Shown here piece by piece: positions 3,138 to 62,040 of a stretch of DNA of 64,000 bases. The first letter of the stretch is position 1. Every line of letters begins with the position of its first letter. A program made the translations under genes and the position numbers. Source of the stretch: Candidatus Omnitrophota bacterium (lineage in GTDB: Bacteria; Omnitrophota; Gorgyraeia; Gygaellales; Profunditerraquicolaceae); assembly GCA_028717245.1 (NCBI GenBank), contig JAQUOD010000009.1, positions 228-64,227 on the forward strand, read 5' to 3'. The notes under the pieces were generated by a model that saw only the letters and a program-made list of their open reading frames with translations, made no database searches and was not told where the DNA came from.

Positions 3138-3154
3138 TAGTATGATAAAGGATA

Positions 3155-3315
3155 TTAGCGGGTGGCTTGGGTGTTTTCGAACAGCATCTTGAAGATGCGA
3201 GCGGCCAGGGTTCACCCGCTAATACGAAGTTAGTGAGAGCGAGCAGAAACTTCAAGCGATCCGCCGTAGGCGGAGAGCGGTGCTGGGAGAAAATACCCAA
3301 GACAGGACCCGCTAA
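3155..3315 (+). repeat. palindromic repeated element, family A copy 1 (TTAGCGGGTGG...GACAGGACCCGCTAA)
   Basis: near-identical to the reverse-strand copy at 19455-19690 and shares termini with 19741-19910, 21680-21750 and 30283-30427. Confidence 0.8.
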
Positions 3316-3386
3316 TAGTTTAATCTATATCCCGAGTTGGTTTTACTTGGGATTTTTATTTTAAGGCAGTATAATTTTTTTAAAAT

Positions 3387-4355
3387 ATGTTAAAAATCGG
3401 CACCTTAAAACTCAATTCCAACCTTATCCTTGCGCCTATGGCGGGAATAAGCGATCTGCCTTTTCGCATGCTCAACCGTAAATTCGGCTGCGAGCTGGCT
3501 TTTGTAGAGATGATTAATTCCCGTTCGGTCAGCTACAAAAGCAAACGCACGCAAAAGATGCTCTCCTCAAATAAAGACGACCAGCCTCTGGGGGTGCAGC
3601 TTCTGGGTTGTGAAATAAAATTTGTGCAAAAGGCCATAGATGTGCTCAATAAATACAAATTTGACCTTTTAGATTTTAACGCTGCCTGTCCGGCAAAAAA
3701 GGTTATCCGCCGCGGCGAAGGTTCAGGCTTGCTGAAAAACCCCAAGAAATTAAGTGAGATTTTAAAGATCCTGGTGAAGAAAGCCAGGGTTCCTGTGACC
3801 GTAAAGATCCGTTCTGGCTGGGATAAGGATTGCGTAAATGCCAAAGAAGTCGCTTCCTATTGCCAGGATGCCGGGGTATCCGCGCTTTTTATCCACGGCA
3901 GGACCATGACACAGGGTTATAGCAGCGTAGTGGATTATTGCGCCATCGGGGAAGTCAAAAAGACATTAAAGATTCCTGTGATTGCCAGCGGCAATATCCT
4001 TAGCCCCCAGCTGGCCAGGAAGATGTTTGAGGAGACAGGTTGTGACGCTATCATTATTGCCAGGGGCGCTTTGGGTAATCCCTGGATATTTAAAGAGATA
4101 AACGAATTCCTGAAAAACGGAAAAATTATTGCCAGGCCTCCTGTAGAAAAGATTGTTCAGGTGATGCTTGAGCATCTGGTTGCGGTGATTGATTTTTACG
4201 GAGAGAGGAATGGCGTAGTTATTTTCCGTAAATTCTTCAGCTGGTATACCCGGGGATTCCGTAAGATCAGGCCTTTAAGAGAACTCATCAGCCGGACAAA
4301 GACGAGGCAAGAGATGCAGGAAGCTATCCAGAAATGCGTTGGCCTACAGCCATAA
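3387..4355 (+). CDS. dusB: tRNA-dihydrouridine synthase (DusB-like)
   Basis: APMAGISDLPFR N-terminus, TIM-barrel Dus motifs, 322 aa. Confidence 0.85.
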   Translation: MLKIGTLKLNSNLILAPMAGISDLPFRMLNRKFGCELAFVEMINSRSVSYKSKRTQKMLSSNKDDQPLGVQLLGCEIKFVQKAIDVLNKYKFDLLDFNAACPAKKVIRRGEGSGLLKNPKKLSEILKILVKKARVPVTVKIRSGWDKDCVNAKEVASYCQDAGVSALFIHGRTMTQGYSSVVDYCAIGEVKKTLKIPVIASGNILSPQLARKMFEETGCDAIIIARGALGNPWIFKEINEFLKNGKIIARPPVEKIVQVMLEHLVAVIDFYGERNGVVIFRKFFSWYTRGFRKIRPLRELISRTKTRQEMQEAIQKCVGLQP

Positions 4356-9616: not shown

Positions 9617-9696
9617 CGTTATAGCGTTATAGGGTTATAGCGTTATAGCGTTTGTCAACGCAAGTAACCCAATAACGCAAGTAACGCAATAACGAA
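9617..9696. repeat. inverted arrays of ~8-nt tandem repeats (CGTTATAG x4 / GCAAGTAAC-CAATAACG)
   Basis: intergenic between rpmF and plsX. Confidence 0.85.
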
Positions 9697-9699
9697 AAT

Positions 9700-12648: not shown

Positions 12649-12730
12649 GTTATAAGCTTTAAGCTAAAAAATCAAAAGCACAGGGATTTTTTTAAAAAGC
12701 TTACAACTTAAAGCTTACAGCTTACAGCTG
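12641..12730. repeat. inverted arrays of TTACAGC-type heptamer repeats
   Basis: intergenic between fabD and fabG. Confidence 0.85.
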
Positions 12731-13887: not shown

Positions 13888-13917
13888 ATGCCCCGCCCCT
13901 TGCTTTCGGCGGGGCAT
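13888..13917 (+). terminator. GC-rich hairpin ATGCCCCGCC...GGCGGGGCAT after acpP
   Basis: 10-bp stem; weak U-tract. Confidence 0.4.
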
Positions 13918-13920
13918 TTA

Positions 13921-14012
13921 TACGTTCGCGGCCAAAAAACCGCGCCATTCATGGCGCGGATGAACAATTGAGCCGCTTCAGTATTCCGCCCAATGAACCT
14001 CGGGCTTAAGAC
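13921..14012 (+). repeat. repeated element family C copy 1 (CGCGGCCAAAAAACCGCGCCATTCATGGCGCGG...)
   Basis: similar to 50610-50708 and the reverse-strand copy at 55280-55385. Confidence 0.7.
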
Positions 14013-15284: not shown

Positions 15285-15383
15285 TTAAAGTTCCATAATG
15301 TTCCATAAGGTTTCATAACGTTACATAAGGTTACCTCAAAAAAAAGCAACCTTATGGAACATTAGGTAACCTTAGGCAACCTT
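15285..15383. repeat. inverted arrays of 10-nt tandem repeats (GTTCCATAAT... / AACCTTATGG...)
   Basis: intergenic between fabF and leuC. Confidence 0.85.
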
Positions 15384-16676: not shown

Positions 16677-16685
16677 AGAAGCATT

Positions 16686-17240
16686 ATGATTATAAAAGGT
16701 AAAGTTCATAAATTCGGAAATGATGTAAATACCGACGACATCATCGCTGCCAAATACCTGGTTTCTACCGATGAAAAAGAGCTGGGCAGGCATTGTATGG
16801 AAAATATCGCGCCTGAATTTTGCAGTAAAGTAAATAAAGGCGATATCATCGTAGCCGGGAAAAACTTTGGTTGCGGTTCGTCGCGGGAACACGCCCCCCG
16901 GGCATTAAAAGGCTGCGGGATTGCCGCGGTGATTGCCCGTAGTTTTGCCGGAATATTTTTCAGGAATTCCATAAATGTAGGTTTGCCGTTTTTGCAATTA
17001 GATGAGACAGAAAAAATAAATGACGGCGATTCGCTTGAAATAGATTTGGCAGGTGGTATAATAAAAAATCTGAGCCAAAATCAAACTTATAAAACCACGC
17101 CCTTCCCCGGGTTTTTACAGGCGATTATTAAGCGGGGCGGTTTAATGAATTATATAAAAAACCACAGCCGTAGGGACTGTCCCCGTAGGTATCGAACCCG
17201 ATTAGAAATCAAGGGGACTGTCCCTACTAAACGAGATTAG
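16686..17240 (+). CDS. leuD: 3-isopropylmalate dehydratase small subunit; C-terminal ~25 codons read through repeated element D
   Basis: aconitase swivel domain GCGSSREHA motif; stop lies inside element D. Confidence 0.8.
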
Positions 17241-17265
17241 TCAGGATTGTAAGATGAGCCAAAAA
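17162..17265 (+). repeat. repeated element family D copy 1 (15-bp-stem hairpin GTAGGGACTGTCCCC...GGGGACTGTCCCTAC plus SD+ATGAGCCAAA)
   Basis: ~97-nt near-identical to 18319-18420. Confidence 0.85.
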
Positions 17266-18318
17266 ACGTACAGAATAGCAGTAATCCCCGGAGATGGGAC
17301 CGGCCCGGAGGTAGTAAACGAAGGCCTTAAGGTCTTAGGGGCAGTTAGTGGTAAGTGTAATTTTAAGTATGAGACCAAGGTCTTTGATTTTAGCGGCGAG
17401 CGTTACCTCAAAACCGGAAAGACCCCGGAAGATAAAGATATTGAGGAGCTGAAAAAATATTCTGCGATTTATCTGGGCGCAGTAGGGCACCCTGATGTTA
17501 AGCCCGGAATTCTGGAGACAGGGGTGCTGTTAAAATTGAGGTTTTCTCTGGACCAGTATATCAACTTACGGCCGGTAAAACTTTATAATGCTACATTCTG
17601 CCCCCTGAAGGACAAAAAGCCTGAAGATATTGATTTTGTCGTCGTGCGTGAAAATTCCGAGGGGCTTTATAAAGGCATGGGAGAATTCAAAGATAAAGGC
17701 ACTAAAGATGAGGTAGCGATTCAGATTTCTTACAATACACGTAAAGGGGTAGAACGCTGCCTGCGTTATGCCTTTGAATATTGCCGCAAACGCAATAGAA
17801 AAAAGAAGCTTACTCTTTGCGGGAAAACCAATGTCCTGACCTTTGCCTGGGATCTGTGGCAAAGAATGTTTAATGAAGTTGCTACAGAATACCCTGACAT
17901 TACCACGGATTATGCCCATGTGGATGCTACGACCATGTGGTTTGTGAAGAACCCGGAGTGGTTTGACGTGATTGTTACGGATAATATGTTCGGGGATATC
18001 ATTACAGATTTAGGCGCCATGATTCAAGGCGGTATGGGTATTGCTGCCGGAGGTAATATCAACCCGCAGGGCGTATCCATGTTTGAGCCTATCGGCGGAA
18101 GCGCGCCTAAATATACGGGTAAGAATGTAATTAATCCCCTGGCTGCGATTTGCGCGCTGGGGATGTTATTGGAGAACTTAGGCGAAGCCAAGGCCGGTAA
18201 GGCAGTTGAGGATGCCGTGATAAAGACAGCGAATAAAAAACTAAAATCCCTCGCTGCCGGGAAGATGGGTTATTCTACGACTGAAGTCGGAGATTTAGTT
18301 ATTAAATATCTAAAATAG
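17254..18318 (+). CDS. leuB: 3-isopropylmalate dehydrogenase
   Basis: [14 protein letters not shown]-terminus, NMFGDIITD motif. Confidence 0.9.
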
Positions 18319-18420
18319 CACAGCAGTAGGGACTGTCCCCGCAGATATCGAACCCAATTAGAAATCAAGGGGACTGTCCCTACTAAACGAGATTAGTCAG
18401 GATTGTAAGATGAGCCAAAG
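18319..18420 (+). repeat. repeated element family D copy 2
   Basis: carries the SD, ATG and first three codons (MSQ) of asd. Confidence 0.85.
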
Positions 18421-19432
18421 AAAATATAATGTCGCAGTAGTGGGTGTGGGTGCAGTAGGCATTGAGATGCTGCGTTGTTTAAGACGGCGTAATTTCGCTA
18501 TCGGAGAATTACGCGTGTTTGCGCGTTCCGGAAGGGCAATACAGGTTGACGGACAGAATTATTCCGTGCAGGCTATTTCACCGGAAGGTTTTCAGGGTAT
18601 AGATATAGCTTTATTCGCCGGCACCGAAGGCGAAAAAGGCGCAGCTGTTATTTATGCTGTTGAGGCGATCAAAAGAGGGGCGGTGGTAATTGATAATGGC
18701 GCGGATTTTCGTATGGACCCCAAAGTCCCTCTGGTAGTCCCTGAAATAAATGCCCAGGACATCAAGAAACATAAAGGGATTATTGCTAATCCGAATTGTT
18801 CGACTATCCAGATGGTGATGGCCCTCTGGCCGATTTATAAAAAAGCCGGTATAAAAAGAGTCGTGGTAACAACTTTGCAGGCGTCTTCGGGCGCGGGTAA
18901 GGGGGCGGTGGAGCAATTAAGAGAAGAAAATTCTTTGATCGCTTCGGGTGGATACCAGGATCTGCATGTCAAAGCGGGAAATAAAAGTATGCCGCAGCAA
19001 TTGGCCTATAATGTTTTTCCGCATATCGGCAGTTTCGCCGAAGAAGGCTATACCAACGAGGAATGGAAATTAGTCAAGGAGACCCATAAGATTATGCATG
19101 ACGCGAAAATAAAAATCTCTGCCACTACTGTTCGAGTTCCGGTCAGGGCCGGGCATTCAGAGGCAGTTTATATCGAAACCGCTAAACCTCTGGCGCCGGA
19201 AAAGGCAAGAGATATTCTTTCCCGCTCAGCGGGTATAATCGTGATAGATGATCCCAAAAACAACCTTTATCCCATGCCTAAAGATATAGAAGGTAAAGAT
19301 GAAGTCTTCGTCGGCCGCATCAGGCGCGACCCCTTCGTTAAGTGCGGCCTTTGGCTGTGGGTAGTCTCGGATAATCTCCTCAAAGGCGCTGCCTTAAACG
19401 CCGTCCAGATCGCCGAGTTATTAATAAAATAG
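18410..19432 (+). CDS. asd: aspartate-semialdehyde dehydrogenase
   Basis: VAVVGVGAVG N-terminus, active-site NPNCSTI. Confidence 0.9.
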   Translation: MSQRKYNVAVVGVGAVGIEMLRCLRRRNFAIGELRVFARSGRAIQVDGQNYSVQAISPEGFQGIDIALFAGTEGEKGAAVIYAVEAIKRGAVVIDNGADFRMDPKVPLVVPEINAQDIKKHKGIIANPNCSTIQMVMALWPIYKKAGIKRVVVTTLQASSGAGKGAVEQLREENSLIASGGYQDLHVKAGNKSMPQQLAYNVFPHIGSFAEEGYTNEEWKLVKETHKIMHDAKIKISATTVRVPVRAGHSEAVYIETAKPLAPEKARDILSRSAGIIVIDDPKNNLYPMPKDIEGKDEVFVGRIRRDPFVKCGLWLWVVSDNLLKGAALNAVQIAELLIK

Positions 19433-19690: not shown

Positions 19691-19740
19691 TACGTTAGCT
19701 AGAAACCGCCAGAGTCATTTGTAAAGTAATAGATTCATTT

Positions 19741-19910
19741 TTAGCGGGTGACGAGGCATGTTTTGAGCAGCATCTTGAAAATTCGAGCGGGCACGGTTCG
19801 TTTCGTCATTTAGTTGTTTCCGAGAGCGAGAATTTTCACCGAAGTGCAGCGAGCCACGCTGGGGCGAGCAAACGGTGCAGCGAAAAATATGCCTCGGCAG
19901 GACCCGCTAA
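19741..19910 (+). repeat. family A element copy 3
   Basis: termini TTAGCGGGTGACGAGGCAT...ATGCCTCGGCAGGACCCGCTAA with compensatory stem changes. Confidence 0.8.
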
Positions 19911-19930
19911 AAGAGTTATCTATATAATAT

Positions 19931-21591: not shown

Positions 21592-21637
21592 GTTATGAGT
21601 TAGAAAGTTAAAAAGTTCAAATGTTCAAATGTGAAAG

Positions 21638-21679: not shown

Positions 21680-21750
21680 TTTTCTCGCTTACGAGGTAGC
21701 GGGTCCTGTCCCGCCATGAATCGTGGCGGGCCACCCGCTAAATTCTTACG
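21680..21750 (-). repeat. family A element copy 4 (short form, reverse orientation)
   Basis: termini AGCGGGTGG / GACAGGACCCGCT joined by a small hairpin. Confidence 0.7.
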
Positions 21751-24890: not shown

Positions 24891-24925
24891 TTTAAATGTT
24901 AGAATGTTAAAATGTTTAAAAGTTT

Positions 24926-26170: not shown

Positions 26171-26274
26171 TCTAATTGCGCTAGCGGGATCCCGCTTTAG
26201 TATAAGAAGGTCAAGCGGGAAAATGTTTGAATGTTGTAATGTTAGAATGTTTTAATGTTTAAAAGAAGGATGCT

Positions 26275-27256: not shown

Positions 27257-27682
27257 ATGAAAAAAGGTTTTACTTTAATTGAGGTCATTGTTGTCGTTAT
27301 TATTATTGGCATCATCGCCTCCTTGTATCTTTCATCTTTCGGCACTACGAAGGAAGGCGTCTTAGATAAAGAGGCCATTTCAAATTTAAAATTACTCCAA
27401 GTTATGGAAAAGACATATGAGATGGATACGGATACTTATTATCCTGCCTCAGAAGGTTCAGTATCGGATATAGTCACTATCAACAATAACCTGCATCTTT
27501 CTTTGCCTGCAGGTTCCGGACGTAGTTGGGACTACGAAGTCTGGAGCACGGGTTGTGTCCAGGCCACGCGAAAGGGCGATGATGAAAGGTCTTGGTATTT
27601 TAAGATTGAAGATGACGGGTCTACGGCTAATTGCGCGACCGATGGAGAGCCGAATAAAGATGATTGTTATACCTGTCCATAA
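27257..27682 (+). CDS. type IV pilin-like protein (prepilin N-terminus MKKGF|TLIEV)
   Basis: G-1/E+5 prepilin signal and C-terminal Cys pair; embedded between argF and argG. Confidence 0.6.
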   Translation: MKKGFTLIEVIVVVIIIGIIASLYLSSFGTTKEGVLDKEAISNLKLLQVMEKTYEMDTDTYYPASEGSVSDIVTINNNLHLSLPAGSGRSWDYEVWSTGCVQATRKGDDERSWYFKIEDDGSTANCATDGEPNKDDCYTCP

Positions 27683-28890: not shown

Positions 28891-28933
28891 GCCGTAAGCT
28901 GTAAGCCGTAAGTTATAAGATCAAGGAGATGAA

Positions 28934-30277: not shown

Positions 30278-30282
30278 TATTT

Positions 30283-30427
30283 TTAGCGGGTGGCTTGGTT
30301 TGATTTCGAGCAGCTTGAAAGGGGACCCCGCGAGTGGGTGTGGGCGAGGAAAATTTGACGAGCACACACCCTAAAAGCAGGGGATAATTTGAATCCCTGC
30401 GAGAAAGCAAGGCAAGGTAGCCGCTAA
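30283..30427 (+). repeat. family A element copy 5
   Basis: starts TTAGCGGGTGGCTTGG, ends CCGCTAA. Confidence 0.7.
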
Positions 30428-30441
30428 TAAGGATAAACTAA

Positions 30442-33404: not shown

Positions 33405-33500
33405 TTTTTCGCACCAGGTGCAAATCCAATCGGGCACCTGGTGCGGAATTGAGATTGTACCTGTCCCGTTATTAGCTTTACACCAGGTGCAAGATGGAGG
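33405..33500 (+). repeat. repeated element family E copy 1 (CGCACCAGGTGCAAATCCAATCGGGCACCTGGTGCG hairpin + GAGATTGTACCTGTCCC)
   Basis: matches 61867-61925. Confidence 0.8.
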
Positions 33501-36984: not shown

Positions 36985-37074
36985 TTGGTTCTTTGAGTTA
37001 CTTGAGTTCATTGAGTTGTTTGAGTTAGAAACTCAATAACTCTATAAACTCAACAAACTCTATAAACTAAATAA
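36985..37074. repeat. inverted arrays of 9-nt tandem repeats (GAGTTNNTT x4 / AAACTCNAT x5)
   Basis: intergenic between the dapL-like gene and folK. Confidence 0.85.
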
Positions 37075-38330: not shown

Positions 38331-38375
38331 AAATTACGAGTTACCAATTACGAATTACCGATTACGGATTTTAGC

Positions 38376-39194: not shown

Positions 39195-39300
39195 TAGATA
39201 AGTTAGTGTCAAGGTGCCAAGTATCAATGTGTCAAAGGAAAAGCAATAAAAGATTTTATACTTTGATACTCTGACACTATGATACTTTGATACATAATCG
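39195..39300. repeat. inverted arrays of ~8-9-nt repeats (GTGTCAAAG... / CTTTGATAC...)
   Basis: intergenic after the nadX-like gene. Confidence 0.85.
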
Positions 39301-39323
39301 AAACGAAAGGGGGTGAACAAGGT

Positions 39324-45011: not shown

Positions 45012-45100
45012 TTGTGTCAAAGTGTCAGTGTATCAAAGTGTCAAAGAAGAAACTTTGATACTTGATACCTTGATACTTTGATACAACCATCGCTATATTA
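45012..45100. repeat. inverted arrays of 8-9-nt repeats (GTGTCAAAG / CTTTGATAC)
   Basis: same repeat unit as at 39195-39300. Confidence 0.85.
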
Positions 45101-45111
45101 AGGAGGTAGAT

Positions 45112-50585: not shown

Positions 50586-52235
50586 ATGAAAAAAAACAGA
50601 TTATTTTTATACATTCGCGGCAACAAAACCGCGCCATTTATGGCGTGGATGGAGTTTGGCCGCTCAGTATTTCGCTCCAGGAAATCGCGGGCTTTAGTTC
50701 GCGGAGCTTCATTTTTCCTTATTTTTTATTTATTGTCTATAGAATCAAGCGCTACCCAGGAAGTTGCCGATAAAGGAGGCATAGCTTCCGCTGCCGGCGT
50801 AACCATATCCATGGATTTTCAGGACGCCAGCCTCAAGGACATATTAAAAATACTTTCTATCCAGTCAGGCCTGAATTTCATTGCTTCCGAGGCAGTGCAA
50901 GACAGAAAAATAACCTTGTTTTTAGATAAAGTGCCGCTTGAGGGGGTAATGGATAAGTTATTTACGGCAAATAATCTTTCTTACGAGCTGGACAACAAAT
51001 CAAATATATTTTTGGTAAAAGACTGGGGCAAGCCCCAGACTGAAACCATTACTAAGGTGTTTTACCTTAAATATGCTACGGTTTCCTCCTCTTCCTTAAA
51101 AGCAGAGATGTCCGATCAGATAGGCAGCAGCAGTTCATCCGGAGGCACAAGTAGTAGCAGCGGCAGTAGTTCAAGCGGAGGGAGCAGTTCCAGTAGCGAT
51201 GGCAAATGGGCAGTAGAAGAGGATGTAGGTATTACTAAGGCGGTAAAAAAGAACCTTTCAGAGAGCGGTTATGTAGTAGAAGATTACCGTACAAATAGTC
51301 TTATTGTTACTGATCTGCCTAGCCGTATACCGGTTATTGATAAAGTCATTGCCTCTTTGGATGTGCCTATACCTCAGGTGATGCTTGAGGTAGAGATGCT
51401 GGATGTGAGTAAAGCTAGTACCGAGAAGTTAGGGCTTAAATTCGGCCAGACGCCTTTGACCTTTGTATTAACCGGCGCTAAGCGAAGCACGGATTTTCCC
51501 TTCAGCTCTACTGTCCTGCCATACGCGGCAGCAAAACAAATGACACCCGGCAGTATGAGTTTTGCTACCGCATATCAAGTGACCTTAGATTTTTTAAAAA
51601 CCCAGACTGATACAAAATTTTTAGCCCGGCCGCGCTTATTGACTTTAAATAATGAAACCGCAGAGATAAAGATTACCACCCAGGAGGCAGTAGGAGAAAT
51701 ACTAACTGTTTCCGGAGAGAGCGGTAATCTGAGCACTACTACTGAAGCAGAAAGATATGAGACCGGTGTTTCTCTGCGGGTTACCCCGCAGATTAATCTA
51801 GAAACCGGAGAGATAACTATGTTTATCGTACCGGCAGTAGCCGAGGCAACTGCCAGCGGTATTACCAGCAGTTCGGGCGTCAAATTTTATAATCCTGAAA
51901 CCAGGACTACCAAATCCATTGTCTGCGTCAAAGATAATGAAACAGTAGTGTTAGGAGGGTTAATACGCAATAAAAGAACCCAGACCATTACCAAATTACC
52001 CTTTTTGGGCGATCTGCCTTTCATCGGGAAATTATTTACCCATAAAGACGTAGACCCGGGCCAGGAACGCGAATTGCTGGTGTTTATTACTCCGCATATA
52101 GTAAAAGATACAAGCATAGAATTTGCCAGCGTAAAAAAAATAGAGCCTCTTAATCTTAAGCGGGAACAAAGCATTGGTTCCGCACTCAACCGTCAGATGA
52201 CCATAGATTCAAGCCTGAATAGCCTGGAAAAATAA
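50586..52235 (+). CDS. pilQ: type IV pilus secretin PilQ (with Ser/Gly-rich linker and element C inserted in the N-terminal coding region)
   Basis: C-terminal secretin motif VVLGGLIRNKRTQTITKLPFLGDLPFIGKLF; GGAGG SD at 50572; alternative in-frame ATG at 50640. Confidence 0.8.
   Translation: MKKNRLFLYIRGNKTAPFMAWMEFGRSVFRSRKSRALVRGASFFLIFYLLSIESSATQEVADKGGIASAAGVTISMDFQDASLKDILKILSIQSGLNFIASEAVQDRKITLFLDKVPLEGVMDKLFTANNLSYELDNKSNIFLVKDWGKPQTETITKVFYLKYATVSSSSLKAEMSDQIGSSSSSGGTSSSSGSSSSGGSSSSSDGKWAVEEDVGITKAVKKNLSESGYVVEDYRTNSLIVTDLPSRIPVIDKVIASLDVPIPQVMLEVEMLDVSKASTEKLGLKFGQTPLTFVLTGAKRSTDFPFSSTVLPYAAAKQMTPGSMSFATAYQVTLDFLKTQTDTKFLARPRLLTLNNETAEIKITTQEAVGEILTVSGESGNLSTTTEAERYETGVSLRVTPQINLETGEITMFIVPAVAEATASGITSSSGVKFYNPETRTTKSIVCVKDNETVVLGGLIRNKRTQTITKLPFLGDLPFIGKLFTHKDVDPGQERELLVFITPHIVKDTSIEFASVKKIEPLNLKREQSIGSALNRQMTIDSSLNSLEK
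50610..50708 (+). repeat. repeated element family C copy 2, in-frame inside the pilQ 5' coding region
   Basis: ~95% identical to the reverse complement of 55280-55385. Confidence 0.85.
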
Positions 52236-55457: not shown

Positions 55458-55892
55458 ATGAAAAAAGGTTTTACGCTCTTAGAACTAATCGTAGTCATGA
55501 TCATCATCGGTATCCTGGCTACCTTAGGTATCCAGCAATACGCCCGGGCAACAGAGAGGGCAAGAGGCGCTGAGGCCAGGCAGGTTTTAGGCCAGATCCG
55601 CACTACTGCCGCAGGATTTCGCTTACAGAATGGAAATAGTTGTGCAGGGTTTGGGAATGACCAGGCTGGTATTGGCACTGAGACTGACCGGATTCCCATA
55701 GATTGCACCAGAGCGACACACTATTTCAGGTATGGGGTTACAGCCGCTACCGCAGATGCTATTATTCTTACTGCTACACGTTGCACAGGAACTAACGGCA
55801 AACAACCGGGCGCTTCAACAGCTTTTCAACTCACTCTAAATACTGACTTTGTATTGGGCACTGATACCTGGGCCGGAAACGGCGGGTATTAA
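55458..55892 (+). CDS. type IVa pilin paralog 1 (MKKGF|TLLELI)
   Basis: prepilin leader, E+5, Cys pair, C-terminal TWAGNGGY; GGAGG SD. Confidence 0.85.
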   Translation: MKKGFTLLELIVVMIIIGILATLGIQQYARATERARGAEARQVLGQIRTTAAGFRLQNGNSCAGFGNDQAGIGTETDRIPIDCTRATHYFRYGVTAATADAIILTATRCTGTNGKQPGASTAFQLTLNTDFVLGTDTWAGNGGY

Positions 55893-55904
55893 TTTAGGCT
55901 CAAG

Positions 55905-56339
55905 ATGAAAAAAGGTTTTACGCTCTTAGAGTTAATCGTGGTCATGATCATTATTGGTATCCTGGCTACTTTAGGTATCCAGCAATACGCCCGGGCAACA
56001 GAGAGGGCCAGAGGCGCTGAAGCCAGGCAGATTTTAGGCCAGATCCGCAGCACTGCCGCAGGGTATTATTTACAGAATGGAACTTGCGTAGGGTTTAATG
56101 ATACATTAGCGGGTATTGGCGGGAATCCTGACCAGATCCCTACCGGATGCAGGGCAACACACTATTTTAATTATTATATTAATATCGGATATCTGACTAC
56201 GGACGTTATGCGGGCTACTGCTACCCGTTGCATAGGAGGTAGGGGTAAACCGCCGAGCGCTTCAACAGCTTTTCAACTCACTCTGACTACTAATTTTGCT
56301 AATGGCAATGACACCTGGGGCGGAAACGGCGGGTATTAA
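55905..56339 (+). CDS. type IVa pilin paralog 2
   Basis: N-terminal 55 aa and last ~25 aa shared with paralogs 1, 3 and 4. Confidence 0.85.
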   Translation: MKKGFTLLELIVVMIIIGILATLGIQQYARATERARGAEARQILGQIRSTAAGYYLQNGTCVGFNDTLAGIGGNPDQIPTGCRATHYFNYYINIGYLTTDVMRATATRCIGGRGKPPSASTAFQLTLTTNFANGNDTWGGNGGY

Positions 56340-56351
56340 TTTAGGCTCAAG

Positions 56352-56786
56352 ATGAAAAAAGGTTTTACGCTCTTAGAGTTAATCGTGGTCATGATCATTA
56401 TTGGTATCCTGGCTACTTTAGGTATCCAGCAATACGCCCGGGCAACAGAGAGGGCCAGAGGCGCTGAAGCCAGGCAGATTTTAGGCCAGATCCGCAGCAC
56501 TGCCGCAGGGTATTATTTACAGAATAGAACTTGCGTAGGGTTTAATGATGCAGCAGCTGGTCTTGGCGGGAATCCTGACCAGATCCCCAGGGCATGCAGG
56601 GCAACCCACTATTTTTATTATTTCATTAATACTGTAAATGCGGACGGTATTTTTGTTGCTGCTGTGCGTTGCTCAGGAACTGATAACGGTAAACAGCCGG
56701 GTGCTGCTTCTGTTGATCGCGTCCTTACTCTAACTACTAACTTTGCTAATGGTGTTGATACCTGGTCCGGAAACGGCGGGTATTAA
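56352..56786 (+). CDS. type IVa pilin paralog 3
   Basis: as paralog 2. Confidence 0.85.
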   Translation: MKKGFTLLELIVVMIIIGILATLGIQQYARATERARGAEARQILGQIRSTAAGYYLQNRTCVGFNDAAAGLGGNPDQIPRACRATHYFYYFINTVNADGIFVAAVRCSGTDNGKQPGAASVDRVLTLTTNFANGVDTWSGNGGY

Positions 56787-56798
56787 TTTAGGCTCAAG

Positions 56799-57233
56799 AT
56801 GAAAAAAGGTTTTACGCTCTTAGAACTAATCGTAGTCATGATCATCATCGGTATCCTGGCTACCTTAGGTATCCAGCAATACGCCCGGGCAACAGAGAGG
56901 GCCAGAGGCGCTGAAGCTAGGCAGATTTTAGGCCAGATCCGCGCTACTGCCGCAGGGTATCGCTTACAGAATGGAACTTGCACAGGGTTTAATGATGCAG
57001 CAGCTGGTATTGGCAGGAACCCTGACCAGATTCCCAGGGTATGCGCGTCAACGCACTATTTTTATTATTGGCTTCATCCTGATACTGGGGGTGATACTTT
57101 TCGGGCTATTGCTACGCGTTGCACGGCAGCAGAAAGCGGTAAGTCACCAGGAGCTTCAGCAGCCCTTTTCCTCTCACTAACTACTAATTTTGCTAATGGC
57201 ACTGATACCTGGTCCGGAAACGGCGGGTATTAA
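56799..57233 (+). CDS. type IVa pilin paralog 4
   Basis: as paralog 2. Confidence 0.85.
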   Translation: MKKGFTLLELIVVMIIIGILATLGIQQYARATERARGAEARQILGQIRATAAGYRLQNGTCTGFNDAAAGIGRNPDQIPRVCASTHYFYYWLHPDTGGDTFRAIATRCTAAESGKSPGASAALFLSLTTNFANGTDTWSGNGGY

Positions 57234-57274
57234 TCTTTAGGGAGCATTGATACATTCGTAAAAGGAGGCTCAAG

Positions 57275-57676
57275 ATGAAGAAAGGTTTTACGCTCTTAGA
57301 GTTAATCGTAGTGATCATTATCATCGGTATTTTGGCTACTTTAGGCATTACCCAGTATGCTTCCACTGTTGAAAGAAGCCGCGTTGCCGAAGCCAAGGCT
57401 AATTTGGGGTCGTTACGTACCCTACAGCTTGCTTATTTTCAGGATAAAGATGAGTATGCTTCAGTAGCTAATTTGGAAGCAAATCTGCCTACTGATACTT
57501 GCACTAGCCAGTACTATTTTAAGTATAGTTGCGACGCTGGGGGGAATGGAACTGGAGAGTGTACTGCTACCAGATGTGGATCTGCCGAGAATGGCAAATC
57601 TCCAGGCTATACAGGGAACGCATATAATATCAGACTCGAGATAAATGGCGAATGGAACAGTGATGCGGGCTGGTAG
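57275..57676 (+). CDS. type IV pilin (divergent fifth pilin)
   Basis: MKKGF|TLLELIVV leader; GGAGG SD; four Cys. Confidence 0.8.
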   Translation: MKKGFTLLELIVVIIIIGILATLGITQYASTVERSRVAEAKANLGSLRTLQLAYFQDKDEYASVANLEANLPTDTCTSQYYFKYSCDAGGNGTGECTATRCGSAENGKSPGYTGNAYNIRLEINGEWNSDAGW

Positions 57677-60377: not shown

Positions 60378-61866
60378 AGCCACAAGTTGCAAGGCAAGAT
60401 TCCTAAAAATCATCTTGTTTCTTCTTTTTACTTACAGCTTACAGCTTACAGCTTACAGCTTATATGCTGATGATATCCAGGAACCCAATGCCGCAGGCAC
60501 TTTCTACCCGGACGACCCGCAGCAGTTATCCCAAATGATTGACGAATTTTTGAATCAGGCAAACCCAGAGGCAGTGCAGGGCGATATATTCGCTTTGATT
60601 TCCCCGCATGCGGGTTATGGTTTTTCAGGGGGAGTAGCTGCCTTTGGCTATAAGCTGATCAAAGATAAGCCATATAAGACGGTGATTATTATCGGACCCA
60701 GCCACCAGTATGGTTTTCAAGGCGTATCCGTGTATCCAAAAGGAATATTCCGCAGCCCCTTAGGAGATTTAGAGATAGATACGGAATTTACCAAGAATTT
60801 GCTTTATCAGGAGAATAATATCTTTTTTGAGCCGGCAGCTTTTGAAAAAGAACACTCAATAGAAGTACAGCTGCCCTTTTTGCAAAAAGTTCTTTCTAAT
60901 TTCAAAATCGTGCCCATTGTGATGGGGGATTGCAGTTTTTCTACCTGCCAAAAATTAGCAGGTTTACTGAAAGAGGCGATAGGCAGTCGCAGGGATGTTT
61001 TGGTAGTTGCTTCCACGGATATGTATCACGGTTATGATTATGCAGAGGCAGGGGTAGTTGACAATTTGACCCTTAGTTATCTTGAGGATATGGATGCCCG
61101 GGGTTTATATGATGGATTAAGAGAAGGCAAACTACAGCTTTGCGGAGGGTTTGGGGTTGTCTCTACCTTAATTTTAGCCAAAGAATTAGGCCACAATAAA
61201 TTGAAAGTATTAAAATATACGGATTCCAGCATAGTAACAGGAAAGAAGGCCAAGGGGGCCTGGACCGTAGGTTATGCCAGTTGTGTTATCGATCAGGAAA
61301 AGGGGGAGTTAAATATGTTAAATAAAGAGCAGAGAAAAAAGCTATTGGGTATTGCGCGTAAATCCATAGAGGCGTATTTAAAAGGCGGAAAAAAACTGCA
61401 ACTTAATGAAACAGATCCCGTATTGTTAAAAGAGATAGGCGCCTTTGTGACCTTGCATGAACGCGCTCAATTACGCGGCTGTATCGGAAATATAATAGGG
61501 CGGGGCCCCCTGTATCTTACCATTAGGGATATGGCTGTTGAGGCAGCGACAGGAGATCCGCGTTTTCAGCCTATGAAACCTGATGAACTCAAGGATGTTG
61601 AAATAGAGATATCCGTGCTTTCTCCTTTAAAAAGAATAACCTCCATAGATGAAATTCAATTAGGTACCCATGGTGTTTTGATCAGGAGGGATTTTGCCAG
61701 CGGCATATTCCTGCCTCAGGTAGCCACGGAGACCGGCTGGCCCAAAGAAGAATTCCTCTCTAATCTCTGCAGCCATAAAGCAGGATTGGAGCCGGATGCC
61801 TGGAAGGATAAGGCCACGGAAATTTATATTTTTAGCGCCGAAGTATTTTCTGAAAAAGATTTTTAG
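60328..61866 (+). CDS. fused MEMO1-family (AmrB-like) and AMMECR1-family (AmrA-like) protein with N-terminal signal-peptide-like segment
   Basis: AAGTFYPDDP MEMO1 N-terminus; C-terminal AMMECR1 motifs GAFVTLHE...LRGCIG; overlaps the AmrS gene by 50 nt. Confidence 0.75.
   Translation: MGNVNSVEKKLRVSGSRATSCKARFLKIILFLLFTYSLQLTAYSLYADDIQEPNAAGTFYPDDPQQLSQMIDEFLNQANPEAVQGDIFALISPHAGYGFSGGVAAFGYKLIKDKPYKTVIIIGPSHQYGFQGVSVYPKGIFRSPLGDLEIDTEFTKNLLYQENNIFFEPAAFEKEHSIEVQLPFLQKVLSNFKIVPIVMGDCSFSTCQKLAGLLKEAIGSRRDVLVVASTDMYHGYDYAEAGVVDNLTLSYLEDMDARGLYDGLREGKLQLCGGFGVVSTLILAKELGHNKLKVLKYTDSSIVTGKKAKGAWTVGYASCVIDQEKGELNMLNKEQRKKLLGIARKSIEAYLKGGKKLQLNETDPVLLKEIGAFVTLHERAQLRGCIGNIIGRGPLYLTIRDMAVEAATGDPRFQPMKPDELKDVEIEISVLSPLKRITSIDEIQLGTHGVLIRRDFASGIFLPQVATETGWPKEEFLSNLCSHKAGLEPDAWKDKATEIYIFSAEVFSEKDF
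60431..60466 (+). repeat. in-frame heptamer repeat (TTACAGC)x5 in the N-terminal hydrophobic segment of the MEMO1-AMMECR1 fusion
   Basis: encodes TYSLQLTAYSLYA. Confidence 0.9.
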
Positions 61867-62040
61867 CACCAGGTGCGAATTCAATCGGGCACCAGGTGCG
61901 AATTTGAGATTGTACCTGTCCCTTTTAATTAAAGATAATCAGGGGACAGGTACAAGATTAGATTCAGAAACGGTACAAGATTAACTTTGCACCCGGTACA
62001 AGATTAGATTGGCACCCGGTGCGAAATAGGCATTACTAAA
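61867..62040 (+). repeat. family E element copy 2, extended into a ~170-nt palindrome (...GTACCTGTCCC / GGGACAGGTAC...)
   Basis: left arm matches 33405-33465. Confidence 0.8.

Follow-up and report, generated by a model that had tools for sequence, protein, structure and literature searches.

Two copies of a probable REP-dimer-like composite repeat bracket leuB and carry start and stop codons in an Omnitrophota leu-asd gene cluster

GTAG-tagged repetitive extragenic palindromes (REPs) are short palindromes with a terminal GTAG (or GYAG/GTRG) tag, stems of 5-13 bp, minimal loops of usually 2-3 nt and units of 20-40 bp (Di Nocera, De Gregorio & Rocco 2013, PMC3733652). They often occur as head-to-head dimers 20-100 bp apart, foldable as one stem-loop, and are found between unidirectional or convergent open reading frames (ORFs), near the upstream stop codon and sometimes providing it as TAG; dimers located within genes encode 20-30 amino acids (PMC3733652). 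The same survey records members in eight phyla, including Planctomycetes and Opitutus of the Planctomycetes-Verrucomicrobia-Chlamydiae (PVC) group, describes a GGGGWSAS motif in the terminal inverted repeats of genes of the RAYT (REP-associated tyrosine transposase) and TIRYT type, and mentions Rickettsia palindromic elements (PMC3733652). REPINs represent the same dimers as a mobile unit, replicated by RAYT transposases (PMC3337134; Bertels & Rainey 2011, PMC3116915). Here, we analyzed a stretch of 64,000 nt from an Omnitrophota genome (contig JAQUOD010000009.1, positions 228 to 64,227; hereafter the window), in which two copies of a composite element are located at the leuD-leuB and leuB-asd junctions. 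The whole is probably best explained by membership of both copies in a family of composite repeats of REP-dimer or REPIN-like type that extends across Omnitrophota.

Copy 1 (17162-17265, plus strand; family-profile nhmmer E=1.6e-25) lies nearly completely within the leuD ORF and the first leuB codons. Copy 2 (18318-18421, plus strand; E=8.9e-25) starts with the last base of the leuB stop codon TAG (18316-18318). Both share one orientation at an offset of 1156 nt and thereby bracket leuB exactly. An earlier note on this DNA, made from its letters, had placed two copies of ~97% identity at 17162-17265 and 18319-18420. The pair is real and the first interval exact, but copy 2 is one base off at each end and the identity amounts to 94.2% (98 of 104 positions in exact register; 96 of 101, i.e., 95%, over 17164-17264). 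The 63 nt preceding the A-run (17201-17263 in copy 1) are identical between the copies, and identity falls to ~48% directly outside both copy ends, giving sharp edges. The hairpin of copy 1 (17170-17227, plus strand) consists of the arms GTAGGGACTGTCCCC (17170-17184) and GGGGACTGTCCCTAC (17213-17227), forming a GC-rich stem of 15 bp with a central T·T mismatch (17178/17219) around a loop of 28 nt (17185-17212), in agreement with the stem, single mismatch and ~30-nt loop described before. In copy 2 (hairpin 18326-18383, plus strand) the same arms GTAGGGACTGTCCCC (18326-18340) and GGGGACTGTCCCTAC (18369-18383) enclose a loop at 18341-18368, and the two loops agree in 25 of 28 positions, three being different.

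These arms are followed on the plus strand by a 3' tail (17228-17263 and 18384-18419, respectively). In copy 1 the tail contains box 1 (TAAACGAGATTAG) with the leuD stop codon TAG at 17238-17240, a Shine-Dalgarno (SD) sequence AGGA at 17244-17247 and box 2 (TTGTAAGATGAGCCAAA) with the leuB ATG at 17254-17256; in copy 2 it contains box 1, the SD AGGA at 18400-18403 and box 2 with the asd ATG at 18410-18412. The arm 15-mer has four matches in the window compared with 0.67 expected from shuffles, and the 22-mer GATTAGTCAGGATTGTAAGATG has two compared with none expected. RNA folding of the window copies yielded -32.1 and -31.6 kcal/mol (z = -3.4 and -3.5), and the hairpin alone folds at about -24 kcal/mol. 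Directly after the hairpin stands ACTAAACGAG and not a U-tract; an intrinsic terminator was rejected on this ground, and no terminator-like site was called on the plus strand at either copy. Rfam 15 covariance models, applied at gathering thresholds or E<=10, gave no match in this region of the window or in 12 related loci.

The wider family was defined by an arm-pattern scan of metagenomes, which returned at least 120 loci, and by searches with the family profile, which added diverged members. Retrieved loci carry L-numbers; L138-L247 originate from sediment and groundwater samples, and L140 is contig Ga0315279_10001478, a syntenic metagenome contig. From these searches at least 51 distinct elements on low-GC Omnitrophota-type contigs outline an intergenic composite repeat of ~115 nt. 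It is built from a 5' box (A)TAAGCAYTGCM, the arm GTAGGGACTGTCCCC, a variable loop and GGGGACTGTCCC, box 1 (TACCAAGCGAGATAAG, or ACGACAAGATAAG in a second sub-family), a spacer of ~8-10 nt and box 2 (TGGGAGATAAGCCAAAA or ..GAGATATGCGAA), after which the SD and ATG of the next gene follow. The two boxes are purine-rich and SD-like (..GAGATAAG.. and ..GAGATAAGCCAAAA). At the core, a head-to-head pair of GTAG-tagged mini-palindromes (GTAG-GGGAC-T-GTCCC-C) folds into one hairpin. Of 31 distinct arm pairs, 27 carry GTAG, the variants being GCAG, CAAG and ATAG. The tag stays unpaired yet conserved in sub-family b (..GTCCC-ACGACAAG), and in sub-family a, to which the window copies belong, it pairs with CTAC. 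As in REPINs, the arms are more conserved than the loop, which covers 3-57 nt with variable sequence. Among the diverged forms recovered by the profile are 3-nt loops (GAA), single arms (L127, L140) and hairpins flipped with respect to the tail (L173, L175, L121), and in L140 another palindrome is nested inside the hairpin. Tail boxes were accompanied by a hairpin arm in 51 of the 54 matches listed, the remaining three having variant or single arms, and no further copy of the boxes was found in the 64-kb window. The possibility that the boxes are an independent leader motif receiving hairpins was rejected accordingly.

The sub-types differ in the way they meet the downstream gene. Mostly, box 2 reads GATAAGCC or GATATGCG and the gene's own ATG lies downstream, as in ..GTTAAGCCAAAAGGAGAGCG-ATG-TAT-AAG of L166; in sub-family b, box 2 is placed to act as the SD. 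The window sub-type carries box 2 as GATGAGCCAAAA or GATGAGCC together with an AGGA or AGGG SD in the spacer. Among the matches listed, an ATG occurs in box 2 of 24 of the 51 distinct elements and opens a long downstream ORF in 11; seven cases have no other start within six codons, namely leuB in the window, L121, L124, L332 and L335, asd in the window and proC in L233. The donation of start codons had been overstated, as most downstream genes among these matches keep their own ATG outside the element. The earlier idea of a mobile cassette donating initiation signals is likewise upheld in part: the element is repeated and apparently mobile or homogenizing, with the two window copies recent relative to the age of the family, but only the 11 elements above hand over a start. 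As a side observation in sub-family b, the ATG of box 2 can open a mini-ORF of 3-4 codons (MRQ, MCE, MCEK, MCEV; L011, L156, L164:59-164, L200 and plsX-fabH of L140), whose TGA shares bases with the start codon of the real gene (..AATGA..); this stop-start overlap is recurrent, whether or not the mini-ORF is translated.

The consequences for the encoded proteins are most direct in the window itself. ORF listing and Pfam place leuD at 16686-17240 (184 amino acids), leuB at 17254-18318 (354 amino acids) and asd at 18410-19432 (340 amino acids), all on the plus strand; leuC is also present by the same means and separated from leuD by 9 nt (16677-16685). The ATGs of leuB and asd both fall inside the repeated stretch GATTGTAAG-ATG-AGCCAAA with AGGA upstream, and no other in-frame ATG, GTG or TTG precedes the conserved N-terminal motifs of LeuB and of Asd (KYNVAVVGVGAVG). 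The element ATG is the sole usable start codon of both genes, and the tail works as their translation-initiation region, as already proposed for SD, ATG and first codons. Box 2 thus encodes the MSQK of LeuB and the MSQ(R) of Asd, which starts MSQRKYNVAV. At leuB the canonical ATG-TAT is replaced by ACG-TAC (..ATG-AGC-CAA-AAA-ACG-TAC) and the former SD-ATG is gone. An exact look-up of LeuB returned nothing; homology search found it to be identical (100%) to a protein of a Candidatus Omnitrophica metagenome-assembled genome (MAG). Among 120 close LeuB homologues (87-93% identity) the majority start with MYKIAV (349 amino acids) and a minority with MSQK, MSEK or MSQE, and Asd orthologs mostly start with MKKYNVAV. 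The ATGAGCCAAAA start with the same tail recurs in front of leuB in five further genomes, of asd in two (L140, L337) and of fabD in one (L140), and compact relatives from which the hairpin has been lost (L333, L337) retain this start before leuB and asd. In a weakly resolved neighbor-joining tree, LeuB proteins of the MSQK type are scattered. Given this scatter and the same codons before Asd and FabD, MSQK as the ancestral LeuB N-terminus was rejected on limited evidence; the distribution points to the MSQK start being a moving junction allele.

At the other end of the gene pair, the leuD frame misses the TAG of GTAG and continues through the hairpin to the TAG of box 1 on its 3' side, 13 nt before the leuB ATG. 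LeuD orthologs end with ...GGL(M/I)NYIK(K) at 162-166 amino acids compared with 184 in the window, so the last ~22-24 codons and the stop, i.e., the residues past ...GGLMNYIKN, stem from the element, confirming the element-encoded C-terminus suggested earlier. Element-encoded tails of differing length are found in L332 (185 amino acids, also translated through the entire hairpin), L121 (175 amino acids) and L166, and in L124 and L164 the TAG of GTAG itself serves as the LeuD stop. The tail is set solely by the frame entering the element, and a 24-codon open stretch has a chance probability of ~0.3. An in-gene insertion of Rickettsia type was rejected, as the LeuD tail begins past the conserved ...NYIK and represents read-through.

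Beyond leu and asd, the family is found between unrelated genes (glgC-acetyltransferase, rpmF-plsX, plsX-fabH, fabH-fabD, fabD-fabG) and upstream of proC, serS-like and argH-like genes. Elements begin 0-17 nt past the upstream stop and end 10-80 nt before the next start, at sites that are intra-operonic and not at promoters. Among the matches listed, the TAG of GTAG is the upstream stop (-4) in 8 of 55, and in most others the stop lies within 1-17 nt. With simple gene calls, the T-centered orientation is co-directional with the flanking genes in 38 of the matches listed and opposite in seven, two of the latter being flipped hairpins whose tails still run along the gene direction. The order fabG-acpP-fabF-leuC-leuD-leuB-asd-truA is kept in the contigs of eight LeuB homologues and in L140, allowing comparison of the three junctions, whose occupation varies between L121, L124, L127, L332, L333, L335, L337 and L140. 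Related GGGACWGTCCC hairpins occupy leuC-leuD in L121, L124, L164, L197 and L140, leuD-leuB in the window, L121, L124, L332, L335, L164, L166 and L140, and leuB-asd in the window, L121, L335, L130, L163 and L169, with a single remaining arm at leuB-asd in L127 and L140. The leuC-leuD gap of the window is an empty site and useful for defining insertion boundaries. Unrelated hairpins fill the slot in L127 (leuC-leuD, leuD-leuB) and L124 (leuB-asd), and in L333, L337 and parts of L332 the genes are tightly packed and no hairpin is present. Loop and tail sequences vary strongly from genome to genome, and in many cases also among the junctions within a single genome: in L335 the window-type tail stands at leuB, while the asd junction has the other sub-family, L140 shows the reverse, and L124 carries two copies with identical loops around leuD and not leuB. 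L140 reaches nine profile matches in 14.75 kb. Between related genomes, these loci show that the element has been gained and lost, and that it has also been flipped, collapsed and nested.

This distribution bears on two explanations that would confine the element to the locus. The earlier note had considered a shared cis-regulatory RNA inside the leuCDB-asd operon, and an operon-specific regulatory or processing hairpin could account for two copies in one operon as well as for several in the same operon of L121, L124 and L140. We consider this very unlikely, since the element is also present at glgC, rpmF-plsX, fab, proC, serS and argH-like junctions, the same leu and asd junctions are empty or hold other hairpin families in L127, L124, L333 and L337, and no Rfam model matched. 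The related sequence at orthologous junctions is repeated elsewhere and variably present, so that ordinary conserved intergenic or terminal coding sequence, named as a counter-explanation at the time, does not describe it. A local accident, i.e., direct repeats arising from leuB insertion, tandem duplication or an assembly artefact, would fit the exact bracketing of leuB at a spacing of 1156 nt. It is the most improbable of the explanations weighed, because the leuD-leuB-asd order is found in every relative with or without elements, and independent assemblies carry the same element with LeuD read-through (L332, L121, L166).

Within the preferred reading, i.e., a REP-dimer-like family spread over many junctions, the window copies would have a recent common history. 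Ectopic gene conversion or duplicative transposition may have recently transferred one junction cassette to the position of the other, because both junctions share the loop and the identical 63-nt tail while such variants differ between genomes. The 3' end of the copied tract would lie in the A-run after GCCAAA, where the boundary between GCCAAA and GAAAATAT, compared with ancestral ATGAAAAAATAT, suggests a recombination end point in A-run microhomology. On the RNA, a ribosome translating leuD must cross the hairpin of copy 1 and terminates at the short distance from the leuB ATG given above, an arrangement that should couple both cistrons. Untranslated hairpins, as in copy 2 and most members, might act as a barrier to 3'-exonucleases and decay or as an endonuclease cleavage site on the mRNA. 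By analogy, the hairpin would separate stability and translation of adjacent cistrons and the tail would re-establish ribosome loading. Such an RNA role would find indirect support in the sense bias, the position and the presence of hairpins in almost every co-directional gap. The orientation bias could equally stem from strand-specific transposition, as genes and GC skew (+0.11) share direction. As a separate observation at copy 2, a sigma-70-like match TTGTAA-16-TATAAT (window 18403-18430) covers box 2 together with the initial codons of asd; the -10 element of this match falls 3' of the asd ATG and therefore cannot serve asd, and promoter-like sites show no regional excess.

The arms were further evaluated for pairing. 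Compensatory variants, taken from independently retrieved or diverged members, comprise GCAG...CTGC (L121, L332), CAAG...CTTG (L121, L140), GGGTC..GACCC and GGGACTCATCCCC...GGGGATGAGTCCC (L218), and in GGGTCTGTCCCC...GGGGACTGACCC (L335, L164, L140) arm-to-arm pairing is kept with the symmetry of each arm broken. Across the 31 different arm pairs, covariation scored 0.058 compared with 0.021 after shuffling, with very little variation at the inner 11 pairs. Hairpin and core sequence are both maintained in these alignments, which do not separate a role as RNA from one as single-stranded DNA. A third explanation regards the arms as two palindromic operators (GGGACNGTCCC; double-stranded GGGACTGTCCC) bound at DNA level by a dimeric regulator or nucleoid protein, the hairpin being incidental. 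The palindromic nature of each arm, the little-changed core 11-mer within variable loop and flanks and the same core in many phyla would suit it. It appears improbable, however, as the GGGTCTGTCCCC...GGGGACTGACCC pairs retain pairing at the expense of arm symmetry and the sites lie within operons and not at promoters. The core spacing of 3-57 nt is incompatible with fixed helical phasing, and phased DNA operators were rejected for this reason.

Several findings weigh against the assignment to a REP-dimer or REPIN-like family and against a structural role of its hairpin. The family profile recovered two copies only over the 64-kb window, far under classical REP density. The 11-nt unit cannot fold stably alone and only the unit pair folds, and GTAG is paired with CTAC in one sub-family, unlike in GTAG REPs. 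The copy 1 hairpin cannot be a stable structure, because it lies inside a translated ORF. The stem invariance seen in metagenomes is partly given by construction, as loci were retrieved with exact arms, and RNAalifold shows only the invariant core stem. No loop structure exceeding that of shuffled loops was detected (mean z -0.25), and folding showed no sense-specific G·U asymmetry, sense being equal to antisense. The orientation bias is confounded by the shared direction of the genes and, probably, of replication (GC skew as above). Finally, jackhmmer with an E. coli RayT seed detected no RAYT or Y1 transposase, neither in the window nor in any locus of Omnitrophota type. This search covered all window ORFs and 247 loci, and matched only in two Planctomycete loci (L001, L041), where the gene is flanked by other sequence and not linked to the motif. 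The RAYT/TIRYT-like Y1 ORFs of these loci (L001:526-1270 and 3224-3900, L041:7619-8000) are flanked by GGAATTCCGGGGACAC-type sequence fitting GGGGWSAS; the core A-strand GGGGACAG fits this motif too, which we note as a lead only.

Part of these findings would be expected for selfish or neutral palindromic DNA whose hairpin has no host function, whose starts, stops and LeuD tail are accidental and fixed, and which moves by strand-specific transposition on the lagging-strand template like IS200/IS605 and REP. Variable presence at orthologous junctions, compact relatives doing well without the hairpin (L333, L337), an unstructured loop with folding that is not strand-specific, nested and rearranged copies typical of mobile DNA, and the inseparable directions of transcription and replication all agree with it. 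This possibility is the strongest competitor, if still an unlikely one. Hairpins of some family at nearly every co-directional junction suggest selection for structure, the conserved SD-like tail is positioned such that box 2 forms the SD in sub-family b, and the RayT search found no transposase in the window and Omnitrophota-type loci.

Extension of the core search to 185,579 species genomes retrieved GGGACWGTCCC-N20-50-GGGACWGTCCC at 120 loci or more, among the matches listed mostly in Planctomycetota and also in Nitrospirota, Actinomycetota, Bacillota, Proteobacteria, Saccharibacteria and Omnitrophota. The core pair was present in 66 IMG/VR contigs compared with 17 and 1 for two control palindromes of the same composition (4-66 times), and many of these contigs belong to Mu-like phages, in which several copies directly precede genes. 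The central base is nearly always identical in the two cores. In this cross-phylum set GTAG is no general feature (14 of 724 flanks, about chance), and no neighboring protein family common to the motif-bearing loci was found. Inner stems are lineage-specific, with AGAATTACGG..CCGTAGATTC in Nitrospirota and phages and GATTTTCG..CGAAAAT in Planctomycetes (loci L001-L120, L249-L314). Orientation statistics are unreliable for the other phyla and viral contigs, as longest-ORF gene calls fail at high GC. As two direct copies of a palindrome, the core gives a two-fold symmetric helix (5'-GGGACUGUCCC-3' twice) with a central U·U or T·T mismatch. A more speculative version, which we rate as rather unlikely, would see a mobile cistron-junction cassette of stop, RNA hairpin, SD and sometimes start exchanged between Omnitrophota junctions, with the core possibly being the recognition site of a widely distributed sequence-specific factor such as a dimeric nuclease, an RNA-binding protein or an HUH enzyme. 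The idea of a recognition site is based on the core pair lying far above the IMG/VR control palindromes and on its presence in Planctomycetota, Nitrospirota, Actinomycetota, Bacillota and Mu-like phage contigs.

Nearly every co-directional gap in the genomes compared here holds some hairpin, and several unrelated families contribute. Many intergenic gaps of the window consist of tandem repeats of 8-10 nt (GTGTCAAA, TTGAGTTN, GTTCCATAA, CGTTATAG, GCTTACAG, GTTTRAAT, ATTACGAR), often followed by their complement to form a long hairpin. They are located at 45012-45111, 36985-37074, 39195-39323, 15285-15383, 9620-9699, 12700-12730, 24891-24925, 26220-26265, 21592-21630, 38331-38375 and 28891-28933, and a tandem-repeat hairpin of the same type occurs at leuC-leuD of L127. 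At 45012-45111 the sense strand folds far better by G·U pairs (-44.5 vs. -31.7 kcal/mol), but at 15285-15383 the antisense fold is the more stable one. The window also contains a second family of repeats, ~165-190 nt long and bounded by TTAGCGGGT...ACCCGCTAA, which is located at 3150-3335, 19733-19925 and 30278-30441, with a short form at 21697-21745 and a member at leuB-asd of L124. Folding is far better for its plus than for its minus strand (-78/-65, -72/-54 and -62/-46 kcal/mol), Rfam returned no match, and these repeats may represent a structured RNA or a further family of REP-like type. A third hairpin family with self-palindromic arms (GCACCAGGTGC ... GCACCTGGTGC) is found at 33405-33470 and 61860-62030, where three 23-nt repeats (GGTACAAGATTAGATT...) follow the hairpin at 61949-62027. 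A small repeated hairpin CGCGG..CCGCGCCATTCATGGCGCGG at 13917-13962, 50606-50651 and about 55380 is followed by a T-run on the minus strand (terminator-like at 13959-13940). Apart from intergenic repeats, four tandem genes of 144 amino acids with a period of 447 nt and a fifth of 133 amino acids (55458-57676) all start with MKKGFTLLELIVV..., resembling a type IV pilin or pseudopilin signal, and a sixth similar start is present at 27257.

In respect to the uncultured phylum Omnitrophota, the favored assignment would mean that repeats of REP/REPIN type are present and dynamic. One sub-type gives the sole start codon of essential biosynthetic genes (leuB and asd, elsewhere fabD and proC), and the family routinely gives stop codons and C-terminal tails. 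For the annotation of MAGs, MSQK N-termini and ...RRDCPRRYR... tails are to be regarded as repeat-derived, and LeuB orthologs differ by 4-5 residues because of their repeat-derived N-termini. If the hairpin acts as an RNA processing or stability signal, the family would directly serve to mark sub-structure within operons of organisms that resist cultivation.

A literature search for Omnitrophota repeats returned nothing relevant, and one for the core 11-mer returned unrelated primer sequences only. Among described systems, comparison is also possible with MITE-like (miniature inverted-repeat transposable element) repeats. Correia/NEMIS of Neisseria and ERIC/IRU of enterobacteria are reportedly such elements of ~100-150 nt that are co-transcribed in operons (work attributed to De Gregorio et al. 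and Buisine et al.). Correia and ERIC form long hairpins with orientation-dependent effects on mRNA processing or stability and can supply expression signals. Their terminal inverted repeats span the entire element and defined target duplications occur (TA for Correia), whereas the Omnitrophota element has an inverted part of 15 bp and is otherwise asymmetric; its inverted repeats are internal and not terminal, owing to the asymmetric 3' tail. In some loci (L154 10/10, L244 11/11, L130) but not in others, the hairpin lies between direct repeats of 8-11 nt (GATAAGCNNTG), by which a target duplication is only suggested. Rickettsia palindromic elements are reportedly translated within host proteins (Ogata et al. 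2000) and are in-frame internal insertions, whereas the Omnitrophota element contributes a tail by read-through at the C-terminus and a start with three codons at the N-terminus. Intercistronic RNase III sites of phage T7 and the malE-malF REP stabilizers are repeated hairpins between cistrons of one transcript. They may serve as a model for possible hairpin action, although the Omnitrophota stem, having 15 bp and a mismatch, does not reach the length of a classical RNase III substrate.

The closest resemblance is to GTAG REP dimers. Shared features are GTAG beside a short GC-rich palindrome, an inverted unit pair with the tags outside and a less conserved spacer, a position between unidirectional genes near the upstream stop, TAG as the stop codon, ~20-30 residues encoded when inside an ORF, single-unit remnants and clusters, and members in the PVC group. 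In contrast to GTAG REPs, the Omnitrophota unit is a palindrome of only 11-13 nt with a 5-6-bp stem and a single central base, this base is the same on one strand in both units and gives the T·T mismatch, and GTAG pairs with CTAC in one sub-family. The conserved 3' tail of ~45 nt with SD-like boxes that travels with the dimer is a further difference, and in the window sub-type the ATG of this tail is an obligate start (LeuB, Asd, FabD, ProC). Compared with REPIN-RAYT systems, copy density in the window is low and RAYT was not found in the window or Omnitrophota-type loci. With the GTAG tag, dimer, location and stop donation all present, the Omnitrophota repeat, while not a proven REPIN-RAYT system, is best regarded as a variant of the GTAG REP kind.

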